Of a stretch of 17,556 bases of DNA, positions 1 to 14,561 are shown one piece after another (within the stretch, counting starts at the first letter, position 1; each line of letters begins with the position of its first letter). The DNA is from Chthonomonadales bacterium (GTDB lineage Bacteria > Armatimonadota > Chthonomonadetes > Chthonomonadales > Chthonomonadaceae), in NCBI GenBank assembly GCA_038217285.1, contig JBBQPO010000119.1, positions 1 through 17,556 on the forward strand, read 5' to 3'. Under the pieces are notes generated by a model that saw only the letters and a list, made by a program, of their open reading frames with translations, did not search any database and was not told the DNA's origin. The position numbers and the translations under genes were made by a program.

Positions 1-139
1 CGTGGGAGATTTGCTCTGCCACCAGATCGCTCCTGCGCCGTTGGTTCCTCCGAAACGAAGAGGGCGTCCACCTGGAAAAACAGGGGCCAGGGAAACGAAA
101 GGAGGTATGGCCAGTGTCACCGTTTAATGCAGCACTACC
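1..139 (+). mobile_element. Probable right end of an IS1-family insertion sequence (partial transposase C-terminus at 2..127 plus terminal repeat)
   Basis: Frame 2 is open from the window start to TAA at 125-127 and reads VGDLLCHQIAPAPLVPPKRRGRPPGKTGARETKGGMASVTV*. This resembles the 'ELL...PP.W.PPK.RGRP' tail I recall from some IS1-like transposases. It is followed by ttaatgcagcactacc (124-139), whose reverse complement GGTAGTGCTGCATTAA fits the IS1-type GGnnnTG end (IS1 IRL begins GGTGATGCTGCC). Confidence 0.45.
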
Positions 140-216
140 AATCGGCCGGACAGGGTATGCTTAAACAGGGCAGGCGACCCGGAAAGCATGCGCTCAAGCG
201 ATCAGGATCACAGGCA

Positions 217-894
217 ATGATGACTCTTTCGGCAGGCTGTTATGCGGCGGGATACTTAACCGGTCTGGGAGCGTTCTGGTGGATGGCCCGGCAGCGCGGG
301 CTGGCGACGCAGGGCGTCTTTGCACTGCTGGCGGCAGGACTGGTCGGAGGGCTGGTCTGCGCCAATCTCGCGCAGTGGATCTTCGCGGGTACCGCCGGGA
401 AGTCGGTGCTGGGAGCGGTCGCGGGCGGCTATCTGAGCGTCGCGCTCTACAAACGCTATCTCGGCATTCGGCGGCCACTGGGCGACCTGTTCGCGGTCGC
501 GCTGAGTGCGGGCGAGGCGGTAGGACGTTGGGGCTGTTTCTTCGCAGGCTGCTGCTACGGGCGGACTTGCGCGCACCTGCCCTGGGCCATCTGGCAGCAC
601 GATGCCTGGCGGCACCCCACGCAGGCCTATCTCTCTCTGGCCAGTCTGGGTATCCTGCTGGTACTGCTCGCCTTGGAGCGCCTGCGCCCGCCCGAGAACA
701 CACTGTTCTTTTTGCAGGGCGTGCTCTACTGCGCGGCCCGGTTCGGCATCGAGTTTCTGCGCGATTCACCCCGTACTGCAGGGAATCTCTCCCTCGCACA
801 GTGGGCCTGTCTGTTCGGCGGCCTTTTCTTCGCCGTCCGTCTGACGTTGCTTCTGCATTCTACGAGGAGGCTTCATGTCCACGCCGTCGCCTGA
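217..894 (+). CDS. Prolipoprotein diacylglyceryl transferase (Lgt) family membrane protein, non-canonical paralog
   Basis: Several hydrophobic helices and the Lgt-family motifs GRWGCFFAGCCYG, RHPTQAY and RFGIEFLR. I placed the start at the ATG-ATG at 217/220 because the longer 127 start overlaps the IS end. Confidence 0.85.
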   Translation: MMTLSAGCYAAGYLTGLGAFWWMARQRGLATQGVFALLAAGLVGGLVCANLAQWIFAGTAGKSVLGAVAGGYLSVALYKRYLGIRRPLGDLFAVALSAGEAVGRWGCFFAGCCYGRTCAHLPWAIWQHDAWRHPTQAYLSLASLGILLVLLALERLRPPENTLFFLQGVLYCAARFGIEFLRDSPRTAGNLSLAQWACLFGGLFFAVRLTLLLHSTRRLHVHAVA

Positions 895-1225
895 GCGTCT
901 CTGCCCTAACTGCCGACAGTCGTACAAAGGAGATCCGCAGTTCTGTCCCCACTGCGGCTTCAATCTGCAGCCCATCCCGCAGCCGAAATTCGTCGCCGGT
1001 TCTGCTGTCGTCGACTCTATTCTGGCCGTGCTGCTGAGTCTGCTCTGCGTGCCCATGCTGGTGACGCTGCTCATTCCGTTTATCCTCTATATTGTCATGG
1101 ACAATCGTTACGTCGCCTTCCGAACCGGCCTGCGCATCATGCTGATCACTTTTGCGGTTCTGGCCCTGGGCGCGCTGGCGTTCTGCGGTATTATGATCGT
1201 CACCAATCTAAACACAGCCCACTGA
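875..1225 (+). CDS. Zinc-ribbon (CPNC...CPHCG) membrane protein, hypothetical
   Basis: Two CxxC pairs at the N-terminus, then two or three hydrophobic segments. A GAGGAGG RBS lies upstream and the gene overlaps the end of the lgt-like gene. Confidence 0.75.
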   Translation: MSTPSPERLCPNCRQSYKGDPQFCPHCGFNLQPIPQPKFVAGSAVVDSILAVLLSLLCVPMLVTLLIPFILYIVMDNRYVAFRTGLRIMLITFAVLALGALAFCGIMIVTNLNTAH

Positions 1226-1254
1226 TGTCCGTATTGCACAGGAAGGAGCGCGCT

Positions 1255-2649
1255 ATGTCGGCAGAGGCAGCACAGGGATGGTCGGAACAGACGCAGGGAC
1301 TCTGTCCGGAATGCCTGCGCACGGTTCCGGCGCTGCTGAAGGCGGAGGAGGGGCGCATCTGGCTGGAGAGCGTCTGTGAGCGCCACGGTATGGCGCGGGC
1401 GCTGCTCGCTTCGGATGCGAAGGAGTATCTGCGTTTCCGGCAGTATGTGCCGGCGCGCTCCGGGGCAGGCTGCTGCGGCGCGGGCGAAACCTGCGCGGAA
1501 AACGGCCCGCCGGTCTGCGTTCTGCTCCTGGAGATCACGCTCGCCTGCAATCTGCGCTGTCCCACCTGCTACGCCGACGCGCAGGGCCACGACTTCATGT
1601 CCGTGGAGACGGCGCGCGCCCGCCTCGATACGTTCTTCCGTTCTCAGAGCAGTCTCGACGTGCTGATGCTCAGCGGCGGCGAGCCGACGATCCATCCTCA
1701 GTTCGGCGATATTCTGAACCTCGCCCTCTCCTATCCCATCGGCCGCATCCTCGTCAACACCAACGGGCTGCGCCTGCGCCAGAGCGACGCCCTGGTGCAG
1801 TCCATCGCCGCGCACCGTGACCGCGTGGAACTGTTCTTCTCCTTCTCCAGTTTCCGGGCCGAGGTGCATGAGCGGCTTTATGGAAAAGACCTGCGGGTGG
1901 AGAAGCGGGAAGCCCTGCAACGGGCGCAGGAAGCGGGGCTGTTCGTGACGCTGGTTCCTACCCTCGAACGCGACGTCAACGACGATGAGATCGGCGATCT
2001 GTACCGTTTCGCTCTCAGCCTGGACAACGTCAATGGCCTCAACTTTCAGCCCGTGATGAGCGCCGGACGCTACGAACATGACTACAACGGAACGGCCCGC
2101 CTCACCCTGACCGACGTGCTGGCGGAACTGGAGCATCAGACGGCAGGCGCGCTCCGAAGCAGCGATTTCGTCGGCTTGCCCTGTTCGCATCCCGACTGCT
2201 GTGTGCTGACCTACGGCTTCCTGGACGAACGCCGCGCACAGATCACGCCTCTGCCGCGCCATCTCGACATCGCGCGCTATCTCGACCTGTTCGCAGACCG
2301 TATCAGCTTCGCCGGTATTCTGAGCGGCGCGGCACGCCGCGTCTGGTCCGATGTGGCGCATCTGCGCGGTAAGCAGACTCTCCAGGACCTGAGCCTGCTG
2401 TTCCGCGAGGCGGGCGTCCGCGACCTGCTGCCGCTGATCGGCAAGCCCGACCGCATCGGCAAGCGCATCTTCCGCATCGTCGTCAAACCGTTCATGGACG
2501 CCCACACCTACGACCACAAACGGATCGAACAGTGCTGCACCAAAATCCTGGACGAGAACGGCAATTCCGTCTCTTTCTGCGAATACAACGTCTTCCACCG
2601 CGCCCGCAAAACGCCCCGCGTCAGCACGATCCCCCTTGTCCTGCGCTGA
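1255..2649 (+). CDS. Radical SAM protein, COG1964 / Tes (tetraether synthase, GDGT-MAS, MJ0619)-like
   Basis: N-terminal CPEC...CERHG rubredoxin-like motif, CNLRCPTCYA (CxxxCxxC), SGGEPTIHP, NTNG, NFQP, PCSHPDC, and C-terminal FMDAHTYDHKRIEQCC and FCEYN. An AAGGAG RBS sits 6 nt before ATG 1255; 1225 is an alternative start. Confidence 0.85.
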   Translation: MSAEAAQGWSEQTQGLCPECLRTVPALLKAEEGRIWLESVCERHGMARALLASDAKEYLRFRQYVPARSGAGCCGAGETCAENGPPVCVLLLEITLACNLRCPTCYADAQGHDFMSVETARARLDTFFRSQSSLDVLMLSGGEPTIHPQFGDILNLALSYPIGRILVNTNGLRLRQSDALVQSIAAHRDRVELFFSFSSFRAEVHERLYGKDLRVEKREALQRAQEAGLFVTLVPTLERDVNDDEIGDLYRFALSLDNVNGLNFQPVMSAGRYEHDYNGTARLTLTDVLAELEHQTAGALRSSDFVGLPCSHPDCCVLTYGFLDERRAQITPLPRHLDIARYLDLFADRISFAGILSGAARRVWSDVAHLRGKQTLQDLSLLFREAGVRDLLPLIGKPDRIGKRIFRIVVKPFMDAHTYDHKRIEQCCTKILDENGNSVSFCEYNVFHRARKTPRVSTIPLVLR

Positions 2650-2675
2650 CGCCCACCCGTTCAGGAGCCTCCACC

Positions 2676-2945
2676 ATGCCCATGAAGTCCCTAAACGAAT
2701 TCGAGAGAGCGCGTCAGGGCGAAAAGTTCGAGGGATACGCCTTCACCTTCTGCAAGGCCGCGTTCCTTGTCCTGATCTTCCAGCGCTTCTCCCTGCTTGC
2801 CCTCTCCGGCCTCGCGACCCTTTTCTATCTCCTCGCCTCCTGGCGCGGCGTCACCCGGTGGCGCTGCTGGGCCAAACCGCCCTACGTCACCCTCTTCTGG
2901 GCCGCCATCTTCGCTTGGCAGTTCTGGCTCCTCCGGCGTCCGTGA
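2676..2945 (+). CDS. Small hypothetical membrane protein (89 aa)
   Basis: AGGAG RBS at 2663-2667 before ATG 2676. About three hydrophobic segments. It follows the radical SAM gene closely on the same strand. Confidence 0.7.
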   Translation: MPMKSLNEFERARQGEKFEGYAFTFCKAAFLVLIFQRFSLLALSGLATLFYLLASWRGVTRWRCWAKPPYVTLFWAAIFAWQFWLLRRP

Positions 2946-3006
2946 ACGCCTGTTGCGGCGCAGGATCATTTCGCTGGGAGCTGTCGGAATCAATCGCAAT
3001 CGAGAA

Positions 3007-3056
3007 TCAAGGAATGTTATCCCTCGCTACTTTCAAGGGATGTTATCCCTCGCTAC
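3007..3056. repeat. Tandem 24-bp direct repeat, period 26
   Basis: tcaaggAatgttatccctcgctac (3007-3030) and tcaaggGatgttatccctcgctac (3033-3056), one mismatch. Confidence 0.9.
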
Positions 3057-3139
3057 GCGGCTTCGCCGGACCGTCCTCGCGGACGGAAATGCAGTTTTTG
3101 GATATGAACAGGCTGTCCTTGTCTTCCCGGCAGACGGAT

Positions 3140-3168
3140 GCAGGAATGCCCTCCCTAAACGGTGAAGA
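3140..3168 (+). repeat. Left copy of a 29-bp direct repeat bracketing the defence island
   Basis: gcaggaatgccctccctaaacggtgaaga matches 12884-12912 at 27 of 29 positions. The core also recurs at 12824-12846. Confidence 0.85.
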
Positions 3169-3204
3169 AAGGTCCAATACAGAACCTGGACAGAACCGAG
3201 AACT

Positions 3205-6200
3205 ATGCCACGTATTTTTGACAATATCGACCTGGATCTGCTTCCGGCTTTGCAGGAGACGTTGAAGGTAGCCGACCGTGCTGATTTTGCGGTCGGCTAT
3301 TTTAACCTGCGGGGCTGGAAGCGGTTGGACTGCCATGTAGAGGCGTGGGCAGGAGGCGAGGGCCACTGTTGTCGGCTGCTTGTGGGGATGCAGAAGGCGC
3401 CGGAAGAGGAGTTGCGGGAGGTGCTCCGGGTTACGGATCACGCCGACGGTATGGATATGCAGACCGTCCTGCTCTATAAGCGCAAACTGGCCACCGAGTT
3501 TCGCGATCAGTTGATGGTGGGCATACCTACCAACGAAGACGAGGCGGGACTGCGGCGACTGGTGGGACAGATCAAACAGAAAAAGGTGCAGGTCAGACTG
3601 TTCCTGCGGCATCGGCTGCATGCCAAACTCTACCTGTTGTTTCGCTCGGACCCGATCAATCCGATTGTCGGCTACCTCGGCAGCAGCAATCTGACCCTCT
3701 CGGGCCTTTCCTATCAGGGCGAACTGAACGTAGACGTACTGGACCATGACGCCGCGAACAAGCTGGCGCAGTGGTTCGAAGATCGCTGGACAGACCACTG
3801 GTGCGTCGATATTTCGGACGAGCTTGTGCAGATCGTGGAGGAGAGCTGGGCGCGAACCGAGCCGATTCCGCCTTATCACATCTACATCAAGATGGCCTAC
3901 CACCTCTCGCAGGAGGCGCGGGCCGGACTGTCGGAATATACCATTCCGCGCGTCTTCCGCGACAAGCTGTTTGACTATCAGACCGCCGCCGTCAAGATCG
4001 CGGCGCGGCACCTGCATAAGCGGGGTGGCGTCGTCATTGGGGATGTCGTGGGGCTAGGAAAGACCCTTATGGCGACTGCCCTGGCCAGCACATTCGAGGA
4101 GCTGGGCATGGAGACCCTGATCCTCTGCCCACGCAACTTGGTGAAGATGTGGAACGACTATCGGGTTCAGTATGGCCTGCGGGCCACGGTGCTCTCCGTC
4201 ACCAGAGCGGTGCGCGAACTGCCCGAGATGTCACGCCACCGTATCGTGCTGATCGATGAAAGCCACAATCTGCGAAACCGCGATGGCAAGGTCTATCGCG
4301 CCATTCGGGAGTATATCGAGAAGAACGACAGCCGCTGTATTCTGTTGACCGCGACGCCCTACAACAAGTCCTATCTCGATCTCTCCAACCAGTTGCGGCT
4401 CTTCGTGCCGGAGGAGAAAGACCTCGGCATCCGACCGGAGCGCCTGCTGCGGGAGATGGGCGAAGTGGAGTTCACACGGCGGCATCAGGCGGGGATTCGC
4501 ACGCTCGCTGCCTTCGAAAAGAGTGACTATCCCGACGACTGGCGGGAGCTGATGCGCCTCTACATGGTGCGGCGCACCCGCTCGTTCATTCAGGAAAACT
4601 ACGCGAAGACCGACCCCGCGACCGGGCGCAAATATCTGCTGTTCAACACCGGGGAGCGCTCCTACTTCCCGACACGCACCCCGAAAACGATCAAGTTCCG
4701 CATCGATGAACAGTACGCCGCGCTCTACGAACAGGATGTCGTGGAGATCATCAACGCGCTCTGTCTGCCGCGCTATGGCCTGGGCAACTACGAAGAGAAC
4801 ATGCCGAGCCAGAAGCCGACGGCGGCGGAGACGGTTGCGCTGAAAGACCTCTCGCGGGCGGGCAAGCGGCTCATGGGTTTCTGCCGCACCAACCTGTTCA
4901 AACGCCTGGAATCGAGCGGATACTCGTTTCTGCTTTCGGTCGAGCGGCATATTCTGCGCAACTATATCTTTCTGCACGCCATCGACAACGGTCTGCCGCT
5001 CCCCATCGGATCGCAGGGCGCGGAGATGCTGGATACCGACAGCAACGACGAGGACGCCGACGACACCGCCGCCGCACAGGATATGTTCAGCGACGAGAAT
5101 GTAGAGGCTATTCCGCAAGAGAAGGTCAAACACGCCCTGCGCACGGATCCGGAGTTCCGGCAACGGGCGAAAGCCGTCTATGAACTGTATCAGGCGCGCT
5201 ACAAGCGACAGTTCAAATGGCTGCCGTCGCCTCTGTTTCAGTCGCAACTGCGCCAGGATCTCCAAGCGGACTGCGATGCCCTCCGCAGTGTGCTGGCGAA
5301 GTGCGACTCCTGGGAGCCGAACAAAGACGGCAAACTGGCGGCGCTGCGGGAGCTGCTGGCGAAAGATCGCCCGAACGACAAGGTGCTGATCTTCACACAG
5401 TTCGCGGACACGGCGCGGTATCTGGGGGAGCAGTTGAAAGCGCTGGGTATCGGGAAGCTGGCCGTCGCGACCGGGCACTCCGACGACCCGACGGAGCTTG
5501 CCTGGAAGTTCAGCCCGGTCAGCAACGACCGGCGGAAACAGATCAAGCCGGAGGACGAAATTCGCGTCCTGATCGCCACCGATGTGCTCTCAGAAGGGCA
5601 AAACCTCCAGGACAGCTTTGTGGTGGTGAACTACGACCTGCCCTGGGCAATTATCCGGCTGGTGCAGCGCGCGGGGCGCGTGGACCGCATCGGGCAGAAA
5701 GCGGAGGAGATCCTCTGCTGCTCGTTCCTGCCGGTAAAGGGCATCGAGAAGATCATCAAACTGCGCGCCCGCGTACGGCAGAGGCTCTCGGAGAATGCCG
5801 AGGTTGTAGGGACCGACGAGGCGTTCTTCGAGGACGACCGCAAAAACAGCGCCCTGCTCGACCTCTATCACGAAAAGGCGGGGGTGCTGGACGCCGAGGA
5901 CGATGGAGATGTGGATCTCGCCTCGAAAGCCTATCAGATCTGGAAAAACGCTGTCGAGGCCGACCCCAAACTGAAAAAGACCATCGAGGATATGCCGAGA
6001 GTGGTCTACTCTACCAAACCGCATGTCGCCTCCGCCGCGCAGCCGGAGGGCGTGCTGGTCTATCTGCATACCGGGCAGGGCAACGATGCGCTGGCCTGGA
6101 TAGATCGGAACGGCAAAAGCGTCACGGAGTCACAGAGCGCTATCCTGCGGGCAGCGGCCTGCACCCCCGAGACGCCCGCTCTGCCGCGCTATGAAGCGCA

Positions 6201-6570
6201 TCACGAACTGGTAGCGCAGGGCATCGAGCATATCGGGATCGAGGAGCGCAGTGTCGGCGGGCAGTTAGGCCGCCCCTCCGGCGCTCGCTTCCGAACCTAC
6301 GAGCGCCTGAAACGCTACGCCGAACAGGTACGCAACACCCTGTTCGATACGCCGGAGCTGCACCGGGCGGTGGAGGAGATCTACCGCTATCCGCTTACCC
6401 AGGCCGCGACTGACCGCTTGAACAGCCACCTCCGCAGCGAAATCGGCGACGATCTCCTGGCGCAACTGACCCTGCTCCTGCGTGAAGAGAACCGTCTCTC
6501 CATCGTCAGCGAAGAGGAACAGACCCGCGAACCGCGCATCATCTGCTCCCTGGGGCTTTCCGCCTCATGA
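3205..6570 (+). CDS. PLD-family nuclease domain fused to an SNF2-like SF2 helicase (restriction-type subunit)
   Basis: N-terminal PLD motifs LHAKLY and GSSNLT..GL...GELN. Helicase motifs GDVVGLGKT (I), IDESHN (II), TATP (III), LIFTQF (IV), TDVLSEGQNLQ (V) and QRAGRVDRIG (VI). Confidence 0.92.
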   Translation: MPRIFDNIDLDLLPALQETLKVADRADFAVGYFNLRGWKRLDCHVEAWAGGEGHCCRLLVGMQKAPEEELREVLRVTDHADGMDMQTVLLYKRKLATEFRDQLMVGIPTNEDEAGLRRLVGQIKQKKVQVRLFLRHRLHAKLYLLFRSDPINPIVGYLGSSNLTLSGLSYQGELNVDVLDHDAANKLAQWFEDRWTDHWCVDISDELVQIVEESWARTEPIPPYHIYIKMAYHLSQEARAGLSEYTIPRVFRDKLFDYQTAAVKIAARHLHKRGGVVIGDVVGLGKTLMATALASTFEELGMETLILCPRNLVKMWNDYRVQYGLRATVLSVTRAVRELPEMSRHRIVLIDESHNLRNRDGKVYRAIREYIEKNDSRCILLTATPYNKSYLDLSNQLRLFVPEEKDLGIRPERLLREMGEVEFTRRHQAGIRTLAAFEKSDYPDDWRELMRLYMVRRTRSFIQENYAKTDPATGRKYLLFNTGERSYFPTRTPKTIKFRIDEQYAALYEQDVVEIINALCLPRYGLGNYEENMPSQKPTAAETVALKDLSRAGKRLMGFCRTNLFKRLESSGYSFLLSVERHILRNYIFLHAIDNGLPLPIGSQGAEMLDTDSNDEDADDTAAAQDMFSDENVEAIPQEKVKHALRTDPEFRQRAKAVYELYQARYKRQFKWLPSPLFQSQLRQDLQADCDALRSVLAKCDSWEPNKDGKLAALRELLAKDRPNDKVLIFTQFADTARYLGEQLKALGIGKLAVATGHSDDPTELAWKFSPVSNDRRKQIKPEDEIRVLIATDVLSEGQNLQDSFVVVNYDLPWAIIRLVQRAGRVDRIGQKAEEILCCSFLPVKGIEKIIKLRARVRQRLSENAEVVGTDEAFFEDDRKNSALLDLYHEKAGVLDAEDDGDVDLASKAYQIWKNAVEADPKLKKTIEDMPRVVYSTKPHVASAAQPEGVLVYLHTGQGNDALAWIDRNGKSVTESQSAILRAAACTPETPALPRYEAHHELVAQGIEHIGIEERSVGGQLGRPSGARFRTYERLKRYAEQVRNTLFDTPELHRAVEEIYRYPLTQAATDRLNSHLRSEIGDDLLAQLTLLLREENRLSIVSEEEQTREPRIICSLGLSAS

Positions 6571-6573
6571 ATT

Positions 6574-6740
6574 CCGCCCCTAAAGGAGCGGCCTGATGCG
6601 GTAACCCCGCTAAAGCGGGCTGGGTCGATCTACCAAGCTTCTCGGCGGAGAATAATAGGCCCGTGAGCCTCCTTTGATGTATGCGTTACCCAGGGCCGTT
6701 TACGGTCCTTACCAAAGACAGACCGCTCCTTTAGGGGCGG
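6574..6740. mobile_element. Non-autonomous REPIN/MITE-like element made of two inverted double-hairpin units
   Basis: Perfect 18-bp inverted repeat ccgcccctaaaggagcgg (6574-6591 / 6723-6740). Each arm has a second hairpin (6604-6621 and 6692-6709). The left arm shares gagcggcctgatgcggtaa with the ends flanking tnpA at 12023-12668. Confidence 0.85.
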
Positions 6741-6803
6741 GGCTTTCGGATCGGTTTCTTGGAATCACCGAAACGAGACATGGAATCTTTCCTGCGAGGA
6801 CTT

Positions 6804-9800
6804 ATGCCGACCTTAAACATCCCGCGTACCCGCACTCTCTTGGAACAGTTCGATTTCTCCACGCTCTTCATCGAGCAGTTGAACTGGTCGCGCCCCGTCA
6901 CACGCCGCCCCGGCGCGTGGCAGGTCGAGGGAGTCGCCTACGCTTACACACACATCGCGGAACTGGCGGGTGTCGTGGTGATGGAAGTGACCGGCCCGGA
7001 CGAGGCGCTGCCTCCCGCTAAAGTGCGCGAGGCCGTGCAGAAGGGCCTGACGGGCCTCCATCGCGAAAATCTGCTGATCTTTGTGGATAAGCTACGGACA
7101 CAGAGCCTCTGGCGCTGGGTGAAGCGGGAAGACGGCAAGACCTATCCCCGCGAACATCTCTACCTGAAGGGACAGCCCGGCGACCTTTTCATCAGCAAGA
7201 TCAGCGGTATGGTGTTCGATATAAGCCGCTTCGACGCACAGGGCAAAGTCTCGTTAATCGCGGTCTCCGATGCGCTCCGCAACGCCCTCGATGTCGAGCG
7301 GGTGACGAAAAAGTTCTTTACGGAGTATGCCGATCAGCGGGTCAAGTTCACCGAACTCATCGTGGGGATCGACGATGAGCGTCAGCGGCGCTGGTACGCC
7401 TCCGTGCTCCTTAACCGCCTGATGTTCATCTACTTCCTCCAACGCAAGTTCCTGATAGACGGTGGCGAACGCGACTACCTCCAGAAGAAGCTAGCGCAGA
7501 CGGCGACGCAGTTCGGGGCCGACAACTACTATGAGGTATTTCTACAGCCGCTCTTTTTCGAGGGATTTGCCCGCCCGGAGCGCGAACGCAGCCCGCAGGC
7601 GAAGGCCCTGCTCGGCACTGTCCCCTATCTGAACGGCGGTCTGTTTCTGGAGCATAAGATCGAGGAGGCCTATCGCGGCAAGATCACCATCCCGGATGCA
7701 GCCTTCGCCAATCTGTTCGGCCTGTTCGAACACTACTCCTGGAACCTCGACGATACACCGGAGGGCCAGCCGGACGAGATCAATCCGGACGTTCTGGGCT
7801 ATATCTTCGAAAAGTATATCAACCAGAAGGAGTTCGGAGCCTACTACACGCGCCCGGAAATCACGGAGTATCTCTGCGAACACACGATCCATCAGTTGAT
7901 TCTCGACACGCTCAACGCCAATCAGGACATTCCCGGCTTGCCACCTGTCCGGCATTACCATGATATTGGCGACTTGCTGACCCACCTGGACGCTCCGGTA
8001 TGCCGCCGCCTGCTCTACGAGGTGCTGCCACATCTCAGTCTGCTCGATCCGGCCTGCGGGTCGGGCGCGTTCCTTGTCGCCGCCATGAAGACGCTGGTCA
8101 ACATCTACGGCGCGATTACCGGACGCATCGAGTATCTAGGCGACAAGAGTCTCACGGTCTGGCTTGCCGATACCCGCAAAGACCACCGCAGCCTCAACTA
8201 CCATATCAAGCGCAAGATCATCACGGAGAACCTTTACGGCGTCGATATTATGGAGGAGGGCGCCGACATCGCGCGTCTGCGGCTCTTTCTGGCACTGGTC
8301 TCCTCTGTCAAAACAGTCGATGAGTTGGAACCGCTGCCCAATATAGACTTCAATATTCTGGCAGGCAACTCCCTCATCGGTCTGCTCCATGTCAACGAAA
8401 ACGATTTCAACGGCAGATTGCAACTCTACGGCTCTTATTCCGAGGTCGTCGCAGAGAAGAATCGTCTGGTAGCGAACTATCGTGGCCTAGCCGAACAGAA
8501 GGGGTTTCGCAACGACCTGCAGATCCTGCGCGACGACATTCAGCAGAAGATCGCTGAAGCAGGCGAGACACTGGATGAACTCCTCCTCGACGAGTTTCTA
8601 ACGCTCAAAATCCAGTTCGAGCAGGCGACCTGGGATGTGGTCATGGGCAAAGAGGGCAAGGCGAAAAAGCGTTCCCCGAATCTATTTGATATTCGGGATC
8701 TCCAACCATTCCATTGGGGCTATCAGTTCGACGAGATTCTGAAGCATGGTGGCTTTGATGCCATCATCACAAATCCACCCTGGGAGATTTTCAAGCCGCA
8801 AGCAAAGGAGTTCCTGACGGATTATGCCGTGGGCATCACCAAGAATAAAATGACCATAAAGGAGTTCGAGGAGAAGCAGACTGAAGCCCTTTCGGACGAC
8901 AATGTACGTCAGGAATGGGAAGCCTTCCTGAGCCGATTCCCTCATGTTAGCGCGTACTATCGCAGCGCGAAGCAGTACGAAAACCAGATTTCCGTCGTGA
9001 ACGGTAAAAAAGCCGGCACCGACATCAACCTCTACAAACTCTTCACCGAGCAGTGCTACAACCTGCTGCGGACCGGCGGACAATGCGGCATCGTCTTGCC
9101 CAGCGGCCTGTACACCGACCTGGGAACGAAGCAGTTGCGGGAACTGCTGTTCGACTCCACTCATATCACAGGACTGTTCTGCTTCGAAAACCGCAAATTG
9201 ATTTTCGAAGGCGTAGACAGTCGCTTCAAATTCATCGTTCTAACCTTCGGCAAGACTGGCCGAACAGAAGCATTTCCTGCGGCTTTTATGCGGCACGATG
9301 TGGCGGAGCTACGCGAATTTCCAAATCGAGGTGCGTTAGATATATCGGTTGAAATGGTGCGCCGTCTCTCGCCAGACTCTTTTTCAATCATAGAATTCAA
9401 GAGTGATATGGACGTGTGTATAGCGGAAAAGATGCTATCGTTCCCGCTACTGGGCGAGAAGATCGAAGGGACATGGAATCTTGTCTTAGCTACTGAGTTT
9501 CACATGACCAACGACAGCAGACTGTTCCGCACAACCTCTGGTATCAATCGGCTGCCACTTTATGAAGGCAAGATGATTCACCAGTTTACTCACACTTGGG
9601 GGGAACCGAAATACTGGATTGATGAGCGTGAAGCGCGTAAGGCTCTGGGTGGACGCACTGGCGACAATGGACAATTCCTCAATTATCAACGATATCGCAC
9701 GGCACATCGTGAGATTGCCAGGAGTGTTGACGAGCGAAGCATGATCTGCAGCATACTTCCGCGTAATGTATTTGCCAACCACAAACTTCACGTAAGCCGT

Positions 9801-10235
9801 GATCTTCTTTCTGGCAATATCCTATGTTACATCTGCGCCATGTTCAACAGCTTTGTTTACGACTTTTCGCTACGTATGCGGGGGATTGGCAGCATTACCA
9901 TGTCAGTCACTTACCAGATGACGATGCCGCGACTGACAGAAAAAGACGCAGCGTTCGCGCCGATAGTAGAACGGGCGGCAAAGCTTATCTGTACTACACC
10001 GGAGTTCGATGATCTAGCTCGCGAAGTTGGATTAAAAAGCCATGTTTATGGGGCTACTGATATGTTTGAACGCGCCCAACTTCGCGCCGAACTAGACGGC
10101 CTTATTGCACACCTCTACGGCCTGACGGAAGCAGAATTCGTCCACATTCTCAGCACTTTTCCTATCGTCGCAGAGCCGGTCAAAGTGGCGGCGCAGAACG
10201 CCTACCGTGACGTGGCCCGAGGACTTATCCAATGA
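6804..10235 (+). CDS. Type IIG / Eco57I-like amino (probably N6-adenine) DNA methyltransferase with a C-terminal target recognition region
   Basis: VPYLNGGLF, LGYIFEK, GAYYT, motif I LLDPACGSGAF, LYGVDI, GNSL, motif IV NPPW and LPLYEGKMIHQF. Start at 6804 (GAGGA upstream) or 6780. Confidence 0.92.
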   Translation: MPTLNIPRTRTLLEQFDFSTLFIEQLNWSRPVTRRPGAWQVEGVAYAYTHIAELAGVVVMEVTGPDEALPPAKVREAVQKGLTGLHRENLLIFVDKLRTQSLWRWVKREDGKTYPREHLYLKGQPGDLFISKISGMVFDISRFDAQGKVSLIAVSDALRNALDVERVTKKFFTEYADQRVKFTELIVGIDDERQRRWYASVLLNRLMFIYFLQRKFLIDGGERDYLQKKLAQTATQFGADNYYEVFLQPLFFEGFARPERERSPQAKALLGTVPYLNGGLFLEHKIEEAYRGKITIPDAAFANLFGLFEHYSWNLDDTPEGQPDEINPDVLGYIFEKYINQKEFGAYYTRPEITEYLCEHTIHQLILDTLNANQDIPGLPPVRHYHDIGDLLTHLDAPVCRRLLYEVLPHLSLLDPACGSGAFLVAAMKTLVNIYGAITGRIEYLGDKSLTVWLADTRKDHRSLNYHIKRKIITENLYGVDIMEEGADIARLRLFLALVSSVKTVDELEPLPNIDFNILAGNSLIGLLHVNENDFNGRLQLYGSYSEVVAEKNRLVANYRGLAEQKGFRNDLQILRDDIQQKIAEAGETLDELLLDEFLTLKIQFEQATWDVVMGKEGKAKKRSPNLFDIRDLQPFHWGYQFDEILKHGGFDAIITNPPWEIFKPQAKEFLTDYAVGITKNKMTIKEFEEKQTEALSDDNVRQEWEAFLSRFPHVSAYYRSAKQYENQISVVNGKKAGTDINLYKLFTEQCYNLLRTGGQCGIVLPSGLYTDLGTKQLRELLFDSTHITGLFCFENRKLIFEGVDSRFKFIVLTFGKTGRTEAFPAAFMRHDVAELREFPNRGALDISVEMVRRLSPDSFSIIEFKSDMDVCIAEKMLSFPLLGEKIEGTWNLVLATEFHMTNDSRLFRTTSGINRLPLYEGKMIHQFTHTWGEPKYWIDEREARKALGGRTGDNGQFLNYQRYRTAHREIARSVDERSMICSILPRNVFANHKLHVSRDLLSGNILCYICAMFNSFVYDFSLRMRGIGSITMSVTYQMTMPRLTEKDAAFAPIVERAAKLICTTPEFDDLAREVGLKSHVYGATDMFERAQLRAELDGLIAHLYGLTEAEFVHILSTFPIVAEPVKVAAQNAYRDVARGLIQ

Positions 10236-11419
10236 GACGCAAGCCTCTGCCTTTGCAATCGTTTCGCCTAAAAAACTTCAAGGCAGTGCGGGATAGCGGC
10301 ATTGTAAAGTTTACACCGTTGACTGTCTTCATCGGCAACAATGGCTCTGGTAAGAGCAGCCTCATCGAAGGACTGGAGACGTTTCAGTCTATCATTAGCG
10401 ATGGTCTGGACCGTGCAATGGAACCGTGGCGTGGTTTCGAGCACATATGGAATCAGGCTAACCCGCATCAGTTACGCTTCTCTCCAGACGTCCGCGAGGA
10501 CCACACGAATCCCATGCGCTTTGAATTGCGTGGAGACGGTTGGGGAGGCAACGTTTATGCCTCTATGGAGGTTAACGTAGGCCCAGGAGGTACGGAACTC
10601 TTCATAGGAAAAGAAGAGTTCCGCATGAGAGTACGTGACTACACTACTCGTGCCGTTCGAGATTCTAGCGGACAGGTACGAGCGACTAATACTTTGGATA
10701 AAAACGCAGCATTAGAGAATCTCGAACTTCTCGAAAGCGGAAGAAATTTTCTCAAGAGCAACCATATTGGTTCAGATCACTGGCAGTTTTTGTCGCTGGT
10801 TCCGCATGCTATGAGCGATCCGGTGCCGCAGAAACGGACGGGCGGGACGATTCGATTGGCGAAAGATGGGTCGAATGTCGCGGAGTACCTGTTGAGTATC
10901 CGCAAGATCGATCCGGCGGTCGTGGATGGCATTGTGGAGACGTTGCAGTATGTTCTGCCCTACGCACGGGATGTGCAGCCTGCGCTCACCTCGGAGCTGG
11001 AGCGGACTGTCTACCTGCAAATGACTGAGGGCAATTTCAAACTTCCCGGCTGGCTGCTCTCGACAGGGACATTGCGTGTTTTGGCTCTGCTGGCGGTGTT
11101 GCGGCATCCGAATCCGCCTGCTCTGCTGGTCATCGAGGAGATCGAGAACGGACTGGACCCGCGCACCATCCACCTGATTGTGGAAGAGATACGTAGTGCG
11201 GTGGAAAGCGGCAAGACGCAGATTATACTGACGACCCATTCGCCTTACCTGCTCGACCTGCTCACCCTGTCGCAGATCGTCGTCGTCGAGCGCGACGATG
11301 CCGGTTCCCCCGTCTTCACACGTCCCGGTAACGACGCAGCCCTACAGGAATGGACGCAGAAATTTGCGCCCGGACAGCTCTACACGATGGGGCGATTGAA
11401 CCGAAAGCAGTCGGAATGA
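10232..11419 (+). CDS. ABC-like AAA ATPase (AAA_21/AAA_15 type), defence-associated
   Basis: LKNFKAV, Walker A GNNGSGKSS, signature LSTGT, Walker B/D-loop IEEIENGLDP and H-loop TTHSP. ATGA overlap with the MTase stop codon. Confidence 0.9.
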   Translation: MRRKPLPLQSFRLKNFKAVRDSGIVKFTPLTVFIGNNGSGKSSLIEGLETFQSIISDGLDRAMEPWRGFEHIWNQANPHQLRFSPDVREDHTNPMRFELRGDGWGGNVYASMEVNVGPGGTELFIGKEEFRMRVRDYTTRAVRDSSGQVRATNTLDKNAALENLELLESGRNFLKSNHIGSDHWQFLSLVPHAMSDPVPQKRTGGTIRLAKDGSNVAEYLLSIRKIDPAVVDGIVETLQYVLPYARDVQPALTSELERTVYLQMTEGNFKLPGWLLSTGTLRVLALLAVLRHPNPPALLVIEEIENGLDPRTIHLIVEEIRSAVESGKTQIILTTHSPYLLDLLTLSQIVVVERDDAGSPVFTRPGNDAALQEWTQKFAPGQLYTMGRLNRKQSE

Positions 11420-12033
11420 AGATTGGCCTTATCCTGGAGTGTGGTCCGGAGGGGCCGGACCTTCATGTCTGCAAACATCTCGCCAAGCGGGTGCTGGCAG
11501 ACGGCGGTATCGAAGCCGAACTCTCCTTTACCACTCTGGACAACAAACCCAAACTGCTGCAACAGTGTGGAGACGCCGCTTTCGTCCTGCTCGGGCAAGG
11601 CTGCGAACGTGTTCTCATCGTCTGGGATCTCTACCCCGCGTGGCGAGAGCAAGGCCAAAAGCCCTGCCGCCGTGCAGACCGAGAGACAATATTCGGCGTC
11701 CTGGAGGCCGCGAACGTGGATAAAAACCGCGTGGCCCTGATCTGCATTCAGGAGGAGTTGGAAGCCTGGCTGCTGGCCGATGGAGACGTGCTGACCGGCT
11801 TTTTAAAGAGCATCAACAGCCATGTCAAAAAGGTGAAGCATCACAAAAATCCGGAACGTCTCGGGTGCAATCCCAAAACGGCCCTCAACAAGCTGATGCA
11901 GGAAAGTACAGGGCGCAAATATGAAGATTATGTCCACGCCCGCAAGATTGTGGCGAGGATTGACGACCTGTCGCGGCTAAGAAAATTTTGCCCGATTTTC
12001 CTGCGCTTCGAACATCATCTTCGCCGCCCGTAA
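11416..12033 (+). CDS. DUF4276-like (TOPRIM-related) protein, partner of the ATPase
   Basis: MKIGLILECGPEGPD, LIVWDL and IQEELEAWLLAD, plus an 'NPK..L' motif. ATGA overlap with the ATPase gene. Its stop codon lies in the loop of the REP-like hairpin. Confidence 0.8.
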   Translation: MKIGLILECGPEGPDLHVCKHLAKRVLADGGIEAELSFTTLDNKPKLLQQCGDAAFVLLGQGCERVLIVWDLYPAWREQGQKPCRRADRETIFGVLEAANVDKNRVALICIQEELEAWLLADGDVLTGFLKSINSHVKKVKHHKNPERLGCNPKTALNKLMQESTGRKYEDYVHARKIVARIDDLSRLRKFCPIFLRFEHHLRRP

Positions 12034-12668
12034 ACGAGCGGCCTGATGCGGTAAGGCCCATAAATGGGCCTGGGATGGTTGGCCTGTAGGATGAGGCGCA
12101 GAGGCGGGAGTTGACGGAGGGGCCATGTCGGCGCACGTTTATCATCAGTTGTTCTATCACATTGTTTGGAGTACGAAAGATCGCCTGCCGTTTATCACCG
12201 ACGATGTGCGGGAATGGCTGGTAGAGCGGGTCGCGAGCGAAGCCCGCAAGCGATACGCTATCGTTCTGGCCTGCAATGCGATGCCCGATCATGTGCATCT
12301 GTTTGTGAGCCTGCCGCCGACCGTAACGCTGGCAACCTTTGTCGGAGAGGTTAAAGGCGCAGCCAGTCATGCTTTTGGTCAGGAGTACGGACAAGTACGC
12401 TTCTTGAAATGGCAAATGGGCTATAGCGTCACCACTCTGCGCAAGAACGAGCAACAGATCGTCATTCGCTACATAGAAGATCAACAACGCCGCCACGCCG
12501 CTGGCAAAATCTGGCCTTCCCTGGAATCCATCAATGATGATACAGCGCCGCCGCCCTAACAAAAAACAGGCCAGCCGTCAATCTCCATGTCCGACCCCAC
12601 CTTCTTTAACAACCAACACAGCCCCCTTCAGGGGGCTTACCGCATCAGGCCGCTCGTTTACGGGCGGC
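12023..12668 (+). mobile_element. REPtron/IS200-like element: HUH transposase flanked by inverted double-hairpin repeats
   Basis: Perfect 33-bp inverted repeat gccgcccgtaaacgagcggcctgatgcggtaag (12023-12055 / 12636-12668). Inner hairpins aggccca-taaa-tgggcct (12054-12071) and agccccc-ttca-gggggct (12620-12637). Confidence 0.85.
12125..12559 (+). CDS. tnpA: IS200/IS605-family Y1 HUH transposase
   Basis: YHIVWSTKDR, HUH motif MPDHVHL, VKG, WQMGY and catalytic YIEDQ. 144 aa with a GGAGG RBS. No tnpB follows. Confidence 0.92.
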   Translation: MSAHVYHQLFYHIVWSTKDRLPFITDDVREWLVERVASEARKRYAIVLACNAMPDHVHLFVSLPPTVTLATFVGEVKGAASHAFGQEYGQVRFLKWQMGYSVTTLRKNEQQIVIRYIEDQQRRHAAGKIWPSLESINDDTAPPP

Positions 12669-12976: not shown

Positions 12977-13444
12977 ATGTTGACGTTACCGGAAGAGATC
13001 GCTACGGCCTGTGCGCCGCTGTTCGAGGCGGTGCCGTTGGAGAGTGCGATGGGGCGTCTGGTGGGCAGTGCGCCGCAACAGACCGAGATCGTGACGCAGA
13101 TTTTGCAGCATCCGGCGCTGACAAAGCGTCCGGAGCTTGCAGCGGGCCTCTGGCTCTATGTGGACGACCTGGACCGCAGCCACACTGTAAGCCAGTCGCT
13201 GGACGATGCTACGGGCGCGTACTGGCACGGCATCATGCATCGTCGCGAAGGCGATTTCAGCAACAGCCACTACTGGATGCGCCGCGCTGTCGCCCATCCT
13301 CTGCGTCGCTCTCGGCCGGAACTCGATCCGGATGCGCTGGTAGATGCCGTTGGAGCTGCCAAGGGCAGCGATAAGCCCGATCTCGTGGCCCGACAGCGCG
13401 AAGAGTGGAAAGCCCTCTTCGAATGGTGCGCGGCGCAGGCGTAG
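12977..13444 (+). CDS. Conserved hypothetical protein (155 aa)
   Basis: AAGGAG RBS upstream. Motif-like block GLWLYVDDLDRSHTVSQ...YWHGIMHRREGDFSNSHYW and C-terminal EWKALFEWC, typical of a widespread uncharacterised family. Confidence 0.8.
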   Translation: MLTLPEEIATACAPLFEAVPLESAMGRLVGSAPQQTEIVTQILQHPALTKRPELAAGLWLYVDDLDRSHTVSQSLDDATGAYWHGIMHRREGDFSNSHYWMRRAVAHPLRRSRPELDPDALVDAVGAAKGSDKPDLVARQREEWKALFEWCAAQA

Positions 13445-13481
13445 AAATTCTCTAAAATCAAACGGAACAGGAGCATTTTCA

Positions 13482-14561
13482 ATGGCGGAAAAAAGTGCGG
13501 TCTCGGCGAAGGAGACCATCAATATGGGGTTTATCGGCGTGGGGGGACGGGGACAGTATCTGCTGCGCCTCATGCTCACCGTGCCCGGCGTGAGGATTAC
13601 GGCGCTCAGCGACGCCGACCCGAACAACCTGGAGAAGGCGGCTGCGATGGTGGTCAAGGCGGGACAGCCGGTTCCGGCCCTGATCGGCGACTGGAAGACG
13701 CTGCTGGAGCGCGCGGATGTCGCGGCGGTCGTGAGCGCCCTGCCCTGCGATCTGCACGCCGCCTGCTATCTCGACGCCATAGCAGCCGGGAAAGACCTTT
13801 ACGGCGAGAAACCGATGTGCCTGACCGTGGCGGACTGCGACAGAGTCGTCGCAGCAGCGAACAAGGCCGACAAACAGATCGTGCAGATCGGGTTTCAGCG
13901 CCGCGCCGACCCGCGCTTCATCGAGCCGATGCAGCAGATCCATGCCGGAGAGCTCGGCACACTCGTCGAAGGCCGCGTCGCGTGGCTCAACTCCTGGGGG
14001 CCGCTCTACGGCTGGTTCGGCAAGCGGGACCGCTCCGGCGACTGGATGGTCGAGCAGGCCGTCCACAACTGGGACGTGATGAACTGGGCCAACGACTGCC
14101 TGCCGGTCCGCGCCATGGGCATGGGCCGCGCCGGCCTCTACGCCGACAAACAGCCCGACCGCGATGTCCACGACTACTACACGGCTCTCGTGGAGTACGA
14201 GAACGGGGTCATCGTCAATATCATCCATAGCTGGATCTCGCCCGGCCAGGAGGGCCATTTCAACCGGAATTTCAACGACGAGTACACCCGCCTGCTCGGC
14301 ACCGACGCCGGGATCGATTTCAACTCCGGCACCTTCTCCTACCGCAAAGAGCTCGACAAACCCGACCGCATCGGGCACAATCATCCCGGCGACATCAACG
14401 GCAGCCTGCTCTCGCTGGAGGCGTTCGTCAACTCCGTCCGCACCCGTTCGGCCCCCGTCGCCACCGTGGAGCATGGGCGCGCCTCCGTCCTCACCTGCCT
14501 GCTGGTGCGCGAGGCCGTCTATCGCAGCGGCGAAGTGACCATGAAGGAGCTGACCGCGTGA
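13482..14561 (+). CDS. Gfo/Idh/MocA family NAD(P)-dependent oxidoreductase
   Basis: Rossmann motif GFIGVGGRG, EKP motif, QIGFQRR and SGDWMVEQAVHNWD. AGGAG RBS upstream. Confidence 0.92.
   Translation: MAEKSAVSAKETINMGFIGVGGRGQYLLRLMLTVPGVRITALSDADPNNLEKAAAMVVKAGQPVPALIGDWKTLLERADVAAVVSALPCDLHAACYLDAIAAGKDLYGEKPMCLTVADCDRVVAAANKADKQIVQIGFQRRADPRFIEPMQQIHAGELGTLVEGRVAWLNSWGPLYGWFGKRDRSGDWMVEQAVHNWDVMNWANDCLPVRAMGMGRAGLYADKQPDRDVHDYYTALVEYENGVIVNIIHSWISPGQEGHFNRNFNDEYTRLLGTDAGIDFNSGTFSYRKELDKPDRIGHNHPGDINGSLLSLEAFVNSVRTRSAPVATVEHGRASVLTCLLVREAVYRSGEVTMKELTA

Follow-up and report, generated by a model that had tools for sequence, protein, structure and literature searches.

A Tes-superfamily radical SAM enzyme genetically linked to a divergent Lgt paralogue and small cysteine-bearing membrane proteins

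Introduction

Among the closest described relatives of the system reported here is Tes (GDGT-MAS, MJ0619; structures 7TOL/7TOM), an enzyme of the radical S-adenosylmethionine (SAM) class with two hydrophobic lipid pockets, whose substrates are described as headgroup-bearing glycerolipids (PMC13459092). It joins lipid tail ends by C-C coupling. Its metal sites include a rubredoxin-like site with three Cys and one His, as well as an N-terminal [4Fe-4S] cluster, also with three Cys and one His. A C-terminal [4Fe-4S] cluster (three Cys and one Met) traps the lipid substrate radical, and a carbon bound to the sulfur of a cluster sulfide occurs along the route (PMC13459092). Bacterial homologues of Tes have been known since 2022 and are loosely tied to branched glycerol dialkyl glycerol tetraether (GDGT) biomarkers, with no function shown for them (PMC8941075, PMC13459092). 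Published work treats them as no more than candidates for membrane-spanning lipid synthesis (PMC8941075, PMC13159169, PMC13274423). Here, we describe a bacterial member of the Tes superfamily that is encoded, together with a paralogue of Lgt and two small membrane proteins, in a cluster of four genes on contig C119 of a Chthonomonadales genome (6.2 Mb, 95% complete). The entire contig of 17,556 bp was analyzed and is referred to as the window.

Another radical SAM enzyme, Mss (from Thermotoga and Thermoanaerobacter), couples fatty-acid tails, and the auxiliary-cluster mechanism of Tes has been proposed for it as well (PMC13459092, PMC13159169). BLAST searches reported for Mss revealed no Tes homologue in the genomes of its source organisms (PMC13159169); Mss is set here beside the enzyme of the window by description. 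The accessible text of the two papers mentions no Lgt or Cys-protein partners for Mss (PMC13459092, PMC13159169). As for Lgt, the phosphatidylglycerol:prolipoprotein diacylglyceryl transferase, the Escherichia coli enzyme binds phosphatidylglycerol in a membrane-open cavity, with an active site that opens to the periplasmic side, and its residues Y26, R143, G154, Y235, R239, E243, and R246 make up the catalytic center and are intolerant to mutation (PMC4728403). H103 of the same enzyme is described as essential yet poorly conserved, and its head domain and arm-1 are reported to set the specificity for the protein substrate (PMC13251419).

We read the four genes as the form that a conserved four-part membrane module takes in this lineage. 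The module consists of an Lgt paralogue, a Tes-type radical SAM enzyme, an 89-aa protein, and at least one protein of a family that we call Cys-tail. The first three of these parts are the conserved core. Particular to the lineage studied here are the zinc-ribbon head of the Cys-tail protein, the two-Cys 89-aa partner, and an altered N-terminal cluster motif in the radical SAM enzyme. The component parts are new subfamilies within two known enzyme families, and the product of the module is probably an unusual lipid-protein or lipid. The initial annotation of this DNA had suggested that the cluster may encode an uncharacterized lipid or lipoprotein modification pathway, which is the best supported reading, as an inference. 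No published description of an Lgt-like and Tes-like combination was found among the matches listed in our literature search, paywalled papers and supplements lying outside it.

Results and discussion

The gene set is conserved across phyla

The four genes lie on the + strand at window positions 217-2945 (Table 1). They are co-directional and overlapping or closely spaced, as the initial annotation had described them. The gene for the 116-aa Cys-tail protein overlaps the Lgt-like gene by 20 nt, with GAGGAGG located 4 nt 5' of its ATG, and its stop codon overlaps the start of the radical SAM gene in the sequence TGATG. The gene for the 89-aa protein follows the radical SAM stop codon after a gap of 26 nt, with GGAG 5' of its start. 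A scan of window positions 1-3400 detected no promoter-like sites, and the five terminator-like sites found there were in no clear excess over shuffled sequences (2.8 +/- 1.4).

The initial annotation had also put the gene in an operon with an Lgt-like one. A survey of the neighborhoods shows this linkage to be kept in several phyla, with two natural gene fusions as further support. A total of 78 related loci (L numbers) from several phyla were compared, the closest being L030 with 91% identity; genomes of the genera Capsulimonas and Armatimonas assembled from metagenomes are among their sources. The presence of the Lgt-like and 89-aa genes was scored by tblastn, and for the latter also with a hidden Markov model (HMM). 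Loci whose radical SAM enzyme is at least 45% identical to that of the window were termed Armatimonadota-type (n=53). An Lgt-like gene is present in 38 of these, each time upstream and on the same strand. Restricting the count to the 36 Armatimonadota-type loci that have 2.5 kb or more on each side gives 31 with the Lgt-like gene, 33 with the 89-aa gene, and 29 with both (L034, L041, L047, L052, L055, L058, and L068 are incomplete). The remaining 25 loci are distant, with enzymes of 30-37% identity, and come from Chloroflexota (11), Vulcanimicrobiota/Eremiobacterota (7), Armatimonadota (1), and Bacillota (1), while five are unlabelled; 19 of them have an Lgt-like gene. Since the gene set recurs in 78 loci from several phyla, its occurrence is beyond chance. 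As for the fusions, LGT, zinc-ribbon, and radical SAM domains are combined in one chain in both P0012 (671 aa) and P0030 (733 aa), which belong to different subclades of the tree.

Analyses of presence and absence in 41 related genomes (G numbers) gave 11 genomes with both a second Lgt and a Tes-like gene, 4 with the Tes-like gene only, 1 with the second Lgt only, and 25 with neither, a distribution that is no statistical test because the genomes are kin and not independent. As for the four Tes-like-only genomes, G003 and G004 fall in a different subclade, the locus of G018 is cut at a contig end, and G009 is a real miss. The Tes-like gene is patchy, being found in 10/24 genomes of the same family. 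A housekeeping Lgt (175-223 bits) was detected in 38 of the 39 related genomes with any Lgt match; G005, which is 79% complete, has only two Lgt fragments (47.5 and 29.5 bits). In G010, a second Lgt-family match (117.6 bits) was observed in a 549-aa open frame (C60:915-1625), and no Tes-like match was found in this genome at E 1e-20.

A related cassette was observed within the same order at L024:4587-7827, and also at L025 and L026: a Tes-like radical SAM gene is followed by genes for an ICMT/PEMT-type membrane methyltransferase, a DUF4395 protein that contains several cysteines, and an Lgt-like protein. With an isoprenylcysteine-carboxyl-type methyltransferase encoded beside an Lgt paralogue, the substrate may be a lipidated cysteine. 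Separately, L072, a 1869-bp contig filed under a Terriglobales (Acidobacteriota) metagenome-assembled genome (MAG), matches the first 1869 bases of the window with 99-100% identity at the protein level. The simplest explanation is a mix-up in binning and not a transfer of genes.

A Tes-superfamily enzyme placed outside Tes and TrsS

The initial annotation had assigned the radical SAM enzyme to a Tes/GDGT-MAS (MJ0619)-like family, and both the sequence and the whole-chain fold agree with this. The closest solved relative is GDGT-MAS 7TOL, which aligns over almost the whole chain with 25% identity (E 3.7e-49). An AlphaFold2 model built with 55 aligned sequences as input (predicted local distance difference test [pLDDT] 85.4, predicted template modeling score [pTM] 0.87) was compared with the PDB using Foldseek, and 7TOL was matched with template modeling (TM) scores of 0.77/0.75 over 483 columns. 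The structural neighbors after 7TOL/7TOM include SkfB, CteB, and SuiB, with TM scores of 0.32-0.37, SkfB being the next non-Tes match at 0.37. Because the whole-chain match is to 7TOL and these others cover the radical SAM core only, the enzyme is predicted to have the complete four-domain Tes architecture, i.e., rubredoxin-like, N-terminal, radical SAM core, and C-terminal domains.

Placement by HMM and phylogeny gave a divided answer: membership of the superfamily stood, and orthology to Tes did not. The best NCBIfam model is that of the radical SAM (seleno)protein TrsS (NF045646), on which the enzyme scores 240.8 bits, the cut-off being 490; on the Tes model (NF045702), it scores 190.3 bits, the cut-off being 450. 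The relatives L020, L024, and L027 reach 188-313 bits on the Tes model. A scan of 1.84 billion representative proteins returned 332 matches at E <= 1e-30, and, outside the enzyme's own cluster (P0002, 66%), full-length matches were at most ~42% identical. NCBIfam models were run on 97 of the 120 full-length (>=400 aa) representatives, the other 23 not being included. Among these 97, 13 pass the TrsS cut-off and 3 the Tes cut-off; among the closest 50 representatives, none passes either.

Two trees place the enzyme in the same way. A FastTree phylogeny of 148 rows (the window, 27 locus proteins, and 120 representatives, with 30 representatives shorter than 400 aa excluded) puts Tes and TrsS together in a 45-row clade with a support of 98, and the window lies outside it. 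In a quick IQ-TREE phylogeny of 64 rows hand-picked from these 148, a 19-row Tes and TrsS clade has an SH-like approximate likelihood-ratio test (SH-aLRT) support of 98, and the Armatimonadota clade of the window has a support of 100; the deeper backbone is weak (83-90). Being below both NCBIfam cut-offs and outside both clades, the enzyme is classed, as far as its sequence goes, as neither Tes nor TrsS. It shares with TrsS the superfamily and the domain order; unlike TrsS, it scores far below 490 bits, and the 13 TrsS representatives cluster apart from it, with Tes. It shares with Tes a full-length relation, the predicted fold, the rubredoxin-like site, the radical SAM motif, and candidate cysteines for the C-terminal cluster. 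Unlike Tes, it is bacterial, its gene is linked to those of an Lgt paralogue and an 89-aa protein, and it has CC-x5-C at the site of the N-terminal cluster.

Two further observations concern the superfamily. Fusions to a Methyltransf_11 domain, to a MobA-like NTP transferase (with an additional HD domain in P0136), or to DUF5714 were seen in P0102, P0130, P0136, P0140, P0094, and P0106. P0094, P0102, and P0106 pass the TrsS cut-off, while P0130, P0136, and P0140, which have no NCBIfam score, are placed in the TrsS clade of the tree. The orthologous radical SAM gene of L009 (G011:C29:77098-78492) has one in-frame TAG, for which a sequencing error, decay to a pseudogene, and recoding are possible explanations.

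Metal-binding motifs

The layout of the motifs that had been read from the DNA, CxxC...CxxH followed by CxxxCxxC and a C-terminal FMD...CC...FC.YN, is present in the translation (Table 1). Conservation was counted in a 55-row alignment (A3). The rubredoxin-like iron site has the pattern of three Cys and one His known from Tes. In the C-terminal domain, every row has F423 and D425, while C437 and C438 are found in 51/55 rows and C452 in 50/55. The candidate cysteines for the C-terminal cluster are C325, C437/C438, and C452, which are found in 50-51/55 rows and align to 7TOL, and the FMD...QCC...FCEYN segment is a probable ligand region of a C-terminal [4Fe-4S] cluster.

The site of the N-terminal cluster differs among clades. 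The canonical C-x3-C-G-x-C-x2-H is retained in Tes, TrsS, and the L024 clade; the Armatimonadota clade has CC(C)G[PA]GExC, and the Eremiobacterota/Chloroflexia sister clade has no Cys at this site. In the window, CC-x5-C is without the following His and three Cys remain, so that a cluster at this position is still feasible, with a motif that is not that of Tes. Judged by the whole-chain fold match and by the residues kept at the rubredoxin-like site, in the radical SAM motif, and in the C-terminal domain, the chemistry of the enzyme looks similar to that of Tes.

A second, divergent Lgt

The first gene of the cluster, which the initial annotation had called a non-canonical Lgt, encodes a second, divergent copy beside a housekeeping Lgt. 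The latter is encoded on contig C58 of the same genome and scores 201.9 bits on PF01790. The paralogue belongs to the same Pfam family (88.9 bits against a cut-off of 24.9, over profile positions 17-233 of 240) and falls far below the cut-offs of the NCBIfam Lgt equivalogs TIGR00544 (48.3 vs 118.9 bits) and NF000778 (64.1 vs 334 bits). A profile of 28 such paralogues matches E. coli Lgt 5AZB with E 4.5e-23; a search of the PDB with the single sequence (phmmer) returned nothing relevant. Seven hydrophobic segments are predicted in the protein. The alignment with 5AZB begins at chain residue 26 and bypasses the head-domain segment, and an N-terminal segment found in the housekeeping and Chloroflexia copies is absent from the paralogue.

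What the paralogue has in common with E. coli Lgt (5AZB/5AZC; PF01790, TIGR00544) is the Pfam family and the residues of the catalytic center. The equivalents of Y26, R143, G154, Y235, R239, E243, and R246 are all retained. In the 28-sequence alignment from which invariance was read (A2), G103, R104, C107, and G115 of the signature region are invariant and align to 5AZB, and R175, E179, and R182 of the motif in transmembrane helix 6 (TM6) are invariant as well. On this basis, the paralogue looks active. The signature region is rich in cysteines, and this was considered as a special feature of the paralogue and rejected: the same region of the housekeeping Lgt reads GRFGCLFNGCCYG, and since that protein carries the same cysteines, they are typical of the lineage.

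Two families of small membrane proteins

The small proteins had been described as Cys-containing membrane proteins, and both turned out to be conserved and to have invariant cysteines. The 116-aa protein has an N-terminal zinc ribbon and hydrophobic segments, the last of which ends in ALAFC and is followed by a 12-aa tail. It is the sole full-length member of the Cys-tail family in this genome. Other zinc-ribbon matches of the genome, on contigs C10, C208, and C370, were rejected as members, as they match zinc-ribbon repeats only and are without the Cys tail. The family was collected with an iterative HMM from the open reading frames (ORFs) between the Lgt-like and radical SAM genes (47 rows, 46 distinct), and Cys104 is its one fully conserved residue. 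In the median over 46 rows, two K/R are followed by 19 uncharged residues, the Cys, and a 10-aa tail; position -3 is L/F in 33/46 and position -2 is A in 22/46. The predicted geometry of this region is that of a lipoprotein signal peptide.

A scan by geometry only, which uses no homology, retrieved 56/2041 ORFs on the strand of the cassette vs 2/2106 on the opposite strand, and at least one such Cys-tail ORF in 39/78 loci. The family HMM finds no copy in 24 loci, one in 29, two in 16, three in 7, and four in 1, and gives 14 matches at L047, 13 of them with both the zinc ribbon and the Cys tail; these copy numbers are upper bounds, because stop-to-stop frames partly overlap. The locus L047, from a Capsulimonadaceae MAG, is peculiar in that ~13 tandem zinc-ribbon Cys-tail paralogues fill the 6 kb upstream of the radical SAM gene (L047:1-5850), and no Lgt-like gene was found there within the range covered. 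Variable copy number, tandem arrays, variable N-terminal domains, and one invariant Cys placed as in a lipobox are the reasons for which the Cys-tail proteins behave like clients.

An analogy can be drawn with the MYXO-CTERM/myxosortase system, where an invariant Cys by a C-terminal membrane helix is thought to be lipidated by an 'Lgt-like' enzyme (PMC11980579). In MYXO-CTERM, the Cys precedes the helix and a cytoplasmic Arg-rich tail is present, whereas in the Cys-tail family the Cys comes after the hydrophobic stretch and has a short tail behind it. The cassette showed no CPBP protease, and the likeness is an analogy only.

The 89-aa protein has no Pfam or NCBIfam match, and the Atlas clusters in which it falls are named 'hypothetical protein' only. 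When Pfam was searched with 33 members of the family at E values up to 1, scattered chance matches were all that was found. The family HMM (alignment A1) detects the protein in 66/78 loci and once in this genome. Of the 12 misses, six are at loci with little sequence after the radical SAM gene, and six (L041, L052, L055, L085, L098, and L106) have room for the gene and no match. In most loci the gene starts less than 100 bp 3' of the radical SAM gene, and in some lineages the protein is more conserved (45-57% identity) than the radical SAM enzyme (~33%). In 33 sequences from Armatimonadota, Eremiobacterota, and Chloroflexia, the invariant residues are A22, F23, T24, C26, K27, L33, Y51, G58, C64, and P69. 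A predicted model of low confidence (pLDDT 68) has three helices. Since Cys26 and Cys64 adjoin basic residues, the positive-inside rule would place both on the cytoplasmic side in this low-confidence model. The DUF4395 protein of L024 has a similar FAFC motif; the idea that the 89-aa protein is a short DUF4395 was rejected (hhalign probability 0.3, E 0.18, 10 columns). Co-folding of the radical SAM enzyme and the Lgt-like protein with the 89-aa partner scored 0.00 vs a mark of 0.32 and was not used either way.

Proposed function and its alternatives

The function that we put forward, with a confidence a little short of an even chance, is that the Lgt paralogue lipidates Cys-tail proteins and that the Tes-like enzyme remodels the lipid tails. 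The Lgt paralogue would move a diacylglyceryl group from a phospholipid to the invariant Cys near the outer end of the last membrane helix of the Cys-tail protein, here Cys104. Tethering of the radical SAM enzyme to the membrane would fall to the Lgt paralogue and to the 89-aa protein, its membrane partner. At the inner face, the radical SAM enzyme would use 5'-deoxyadenosyl radicals and its C-terminal [4Fe-4S] cluster, in the manner of Tes, to activate unactivated tail carbons, and the new C-C (or C-S) bond would give a cross-linked or membrane-spanning lipid anchor. The acceptor, lipid donor, order of steps, chemistry, and product are in each case what we infer. In its most specific form, the proposal is one of a new protein lipidation: the Lgt paralogue diacylglycerylates the Cys of the Cys tail, the Tes-type enzyme welds the tails together or onto a lipid in the other leaflet, and the protein ends up covalently tied to a macrocyclic or membrane-spanning lipid. 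We regard this form as possible and somewhat doubtful. In a bolder variant, ligands or a carrier sulfur would come from the pair of invariant cysteines in the 89-aa protein and stand in for the lost N-terminal cluster motif.

Several points weigh against this lipidation scheme. Radical SAM enzymes must work in the cytoplasm, and, because the active site of E. coli Lgt opens to the periplasm, the membrane would lie between the sites of the two reactions. A bulky residue (V/L/I/W in 37/46) precedes the Cys of the Cys tail, unlike the G/A/S of a lipobox, and the conservation counted in this family, with Cys104 in 47/47 rows, is inflated because the iterative HMM was limited to ORFs between the two enzyme genes. 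At some loci, such as L088, L093, and L101, the Lgt-like gene abuts the radical SAM gene, and the flanks covered contain no Cys-tail ORF; at these loci, the client may be elsewhere in the genome, or the true substrate may be a free lipid or the 89-aa protein. The paralogue, which in some cases forms one chain with the radical SAM enzyme, differs from E. coli Lgt in having a Leu at the position of the essential H103 of the HGGL motif; this position is Gln in the housekeeping Lgt of the same genome, which is also without the His. The periplasmic head domain and the N-terminal arm-1 are absent as well, a loss that fits a different acceptor. Finally, the N-terminal motif of the radical SAM enzyme is not that of Tes and is absent in the sister clade, and its chemistry may therefore differ from that of Tes.

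The main rival, which we consider unlikely, is that the Tes-like enzyme couples the tails of ordinary glycerolipids that stay free, giving a diabolic-acid-type, macrocyclic, or membrane-spanning lipid; Lgt would then serve as an anchor or in lipid hand-over, and the small proteins would be structural. The whole predicted Tes fold and the retained C-terminal cluster cysteines agree with such a role, and the LGT-radical SAM fusions would suit an anchor or a hand-over. Some loci are limited to the Lgt-like, radical SAM, and 89-aa genes. In addition, Tes is described as binding headgroup glycerolipids and E. coli Lgt phosphatidylglycerol (PMC13459092, PMC4728403), and bacterial Tes homologues are assigned to membrane-spanning lipids in published hypotheses (PMC8941075). 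A mere anchor, however, needs no invariant catalytic arginines, Glu, and Tyr of Lgt, and tandem arrays of up to ~13 paralogues with one invariant Cys are unexpected for structural subunits. The patchy occurrence of the Tes-like gene within the family also suits an accessory trait over core membrane chemistry. A quite improbable alternative is that the enzyme is a protein or peptide maturase, which acts on the cysteines of the 89-aa or Cys-tail proteins (for example by thioether formation or by linking a carbon of a lipid to a protein sulfur) with Lgt supplying or positioning the lipid and with no C-C coupling from tail to tail. The 89-aa cysteines, if cytoplasmic as predicted, would be within reach of a cytoplasmic enzyme, the chemistry described for Tes already includes a carbon-sulfur bond to a cluster sulfide (PMC13459092), and the 89-aa gene closely follows the radical SAM gene in most loci. 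The peptide maturases SkfB, CteB, and SuiB are also among the next structural neighbors, although in the core only; the C-terminal domain is that of Tes and not a SPASM or ribosomally synthesized and post-translationally modified peptide (RiPP)-recognition domain, and 7TOL is the only whole-chain match. The single copy of the 89-aa gene, and the fact that its product is in some lineages more conserved than the enzyme, suit a subunit over a substrate.

It is scarcely credible, and close to refuted, that the two enzymes have no joint function, i.e., that the Lgt copy is ordinary lipoprotein machinery, that the radical SAM enzyme has an unrelated role (as a methylase or a TrsS-type enzyme), and that their adjacency is meaningless. 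MJ0619 was reportedly first proposed as a methylase, the name of PF23545 (HMPTM zinc ribbon) reflects an older methyltransferase annotation, and TrsS is the best NCBIfam match. Against this stand an adjacency kept across at least three phyla and found also as fusions, a separate housekeeping Lgt in all but one of the 39 related genomes with any Lgt match, and the position of the enzyme below the cut-off of TrsS and outside its clade.

One large clade of the bacterial Tes family thus comes with a specialized Lgt copy, at times fused to it, and with Cys-bearing membrane proteins. If the novel lipidation that we propose is true, it would explain one large clade of bacterial 'Tes homologues', and a cross-linked lipid bound to protein would be a new chemistry for protein anchoring. 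It would also call for caution in environmental surveys, where every 'Tes homologue' may be taken as a marker of producers of membrane-spanning lipids.

Features and neighboring genes of the window

Table 1 Position of the cassette genes, their motifs, and the other genes of the window. Positions are those of the 17,556-bp window.
Feature	Position	Strand	Remarks
Lgt paralogue	217-894	+	225 aa from ATG at 217; relatives begin at equivalent MTLS
Lgt signature region GRWGCFFAGCCYG, G103-G115	523-561	+	Invariant Arg104 aligns with E. coli R143
TM6 motif Y171...R175-x3-E179-x2-R182	727-762	+	Aligns with E. coli Y235, R239, E243, R246
116-aa zinc-ribbon Cys-tail membrane protein	875-1225	+	Weak Pfam zinc-ribbon matches, all below gathering score
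Zinc ribbon CPNC-x10-CPHC, C10, C13, C24, C27	902-955	+	Kept in 41-42/47
Cys104 of 116-aa protein	1184-1186	+	Cys in 47/47; the one fully conserved residue of the family
Tes-superfamily radical SAM enzyme, 474 aa	1225-2649	+	PF04055 and PF23545
Rubredoxin-like site CPEC...CERH, C27, C30, C51, H54	1303-1386	+	Invariant in 55/55
CC-x5-C, C83, C84, C90	1471-1494	+	Replaces Tes N-terminal cluster motif C-x3-C-G-x-C-x2-H
Radical SAM cluster motif CNLRCPTC, C108, C112, C115	1546-1569	+	Invariant in 55/55
LPCSHPDCC segment, C320, C325, C326, C-terminal domain	2182-2202	+	51/55, 50/55, 33/55
FMD...QCC...FCEYN segment, C437, C438, C452	2491-2589	+	Aligns with 7TOL
89-aa membrane protein, unnamed family	2676-2945	+	Directly after radical SAM gene; single copy
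Cys26, invariant AFTFCK motif	2751-2753	+	33 sequences
Cys64, basic loop RWRCWAKPP	2865-2867	+	Invariant in 33 sequences
HKD/PLD + SNF2 helicase	3205-6570		Defense island
Type IIG restriction-methyltransferase	6759-10235		Defense island
AAA_21 ATPase of HEC-01-type pair	10232-11419		Defense island
DUF4276 protein of HEC-01-type pair	11350-12033		Defense island
IS200/Y1-type transposase	12125-12559		PF01797, 87.7 bits; end of defense island
GFO/IDH/MocA oxidoreductase	13344-14561		Ordinary metabolic gene, high G+C
Esterase + SMP-30/gluconolactonase-like protein	14558-16312		Ordinary metabolic gene, high G+C

A defense role for the cassette was considered and rejected, as the defense genes downstream are not conserved beside the cassette in relatives (L020). 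In a PADLOC search, the Lgt-like protein had no match, and the radical SAM enzyme had only weak, generic matches to viperin models over the radical SAM core. The defense island and the transposase are not part of the module. The island lies directly downstream of the cassette, at 3205-12033, and the G+C content is ~0.50 at 8.5-10.5 kb vs ~0.63 in the cassette.

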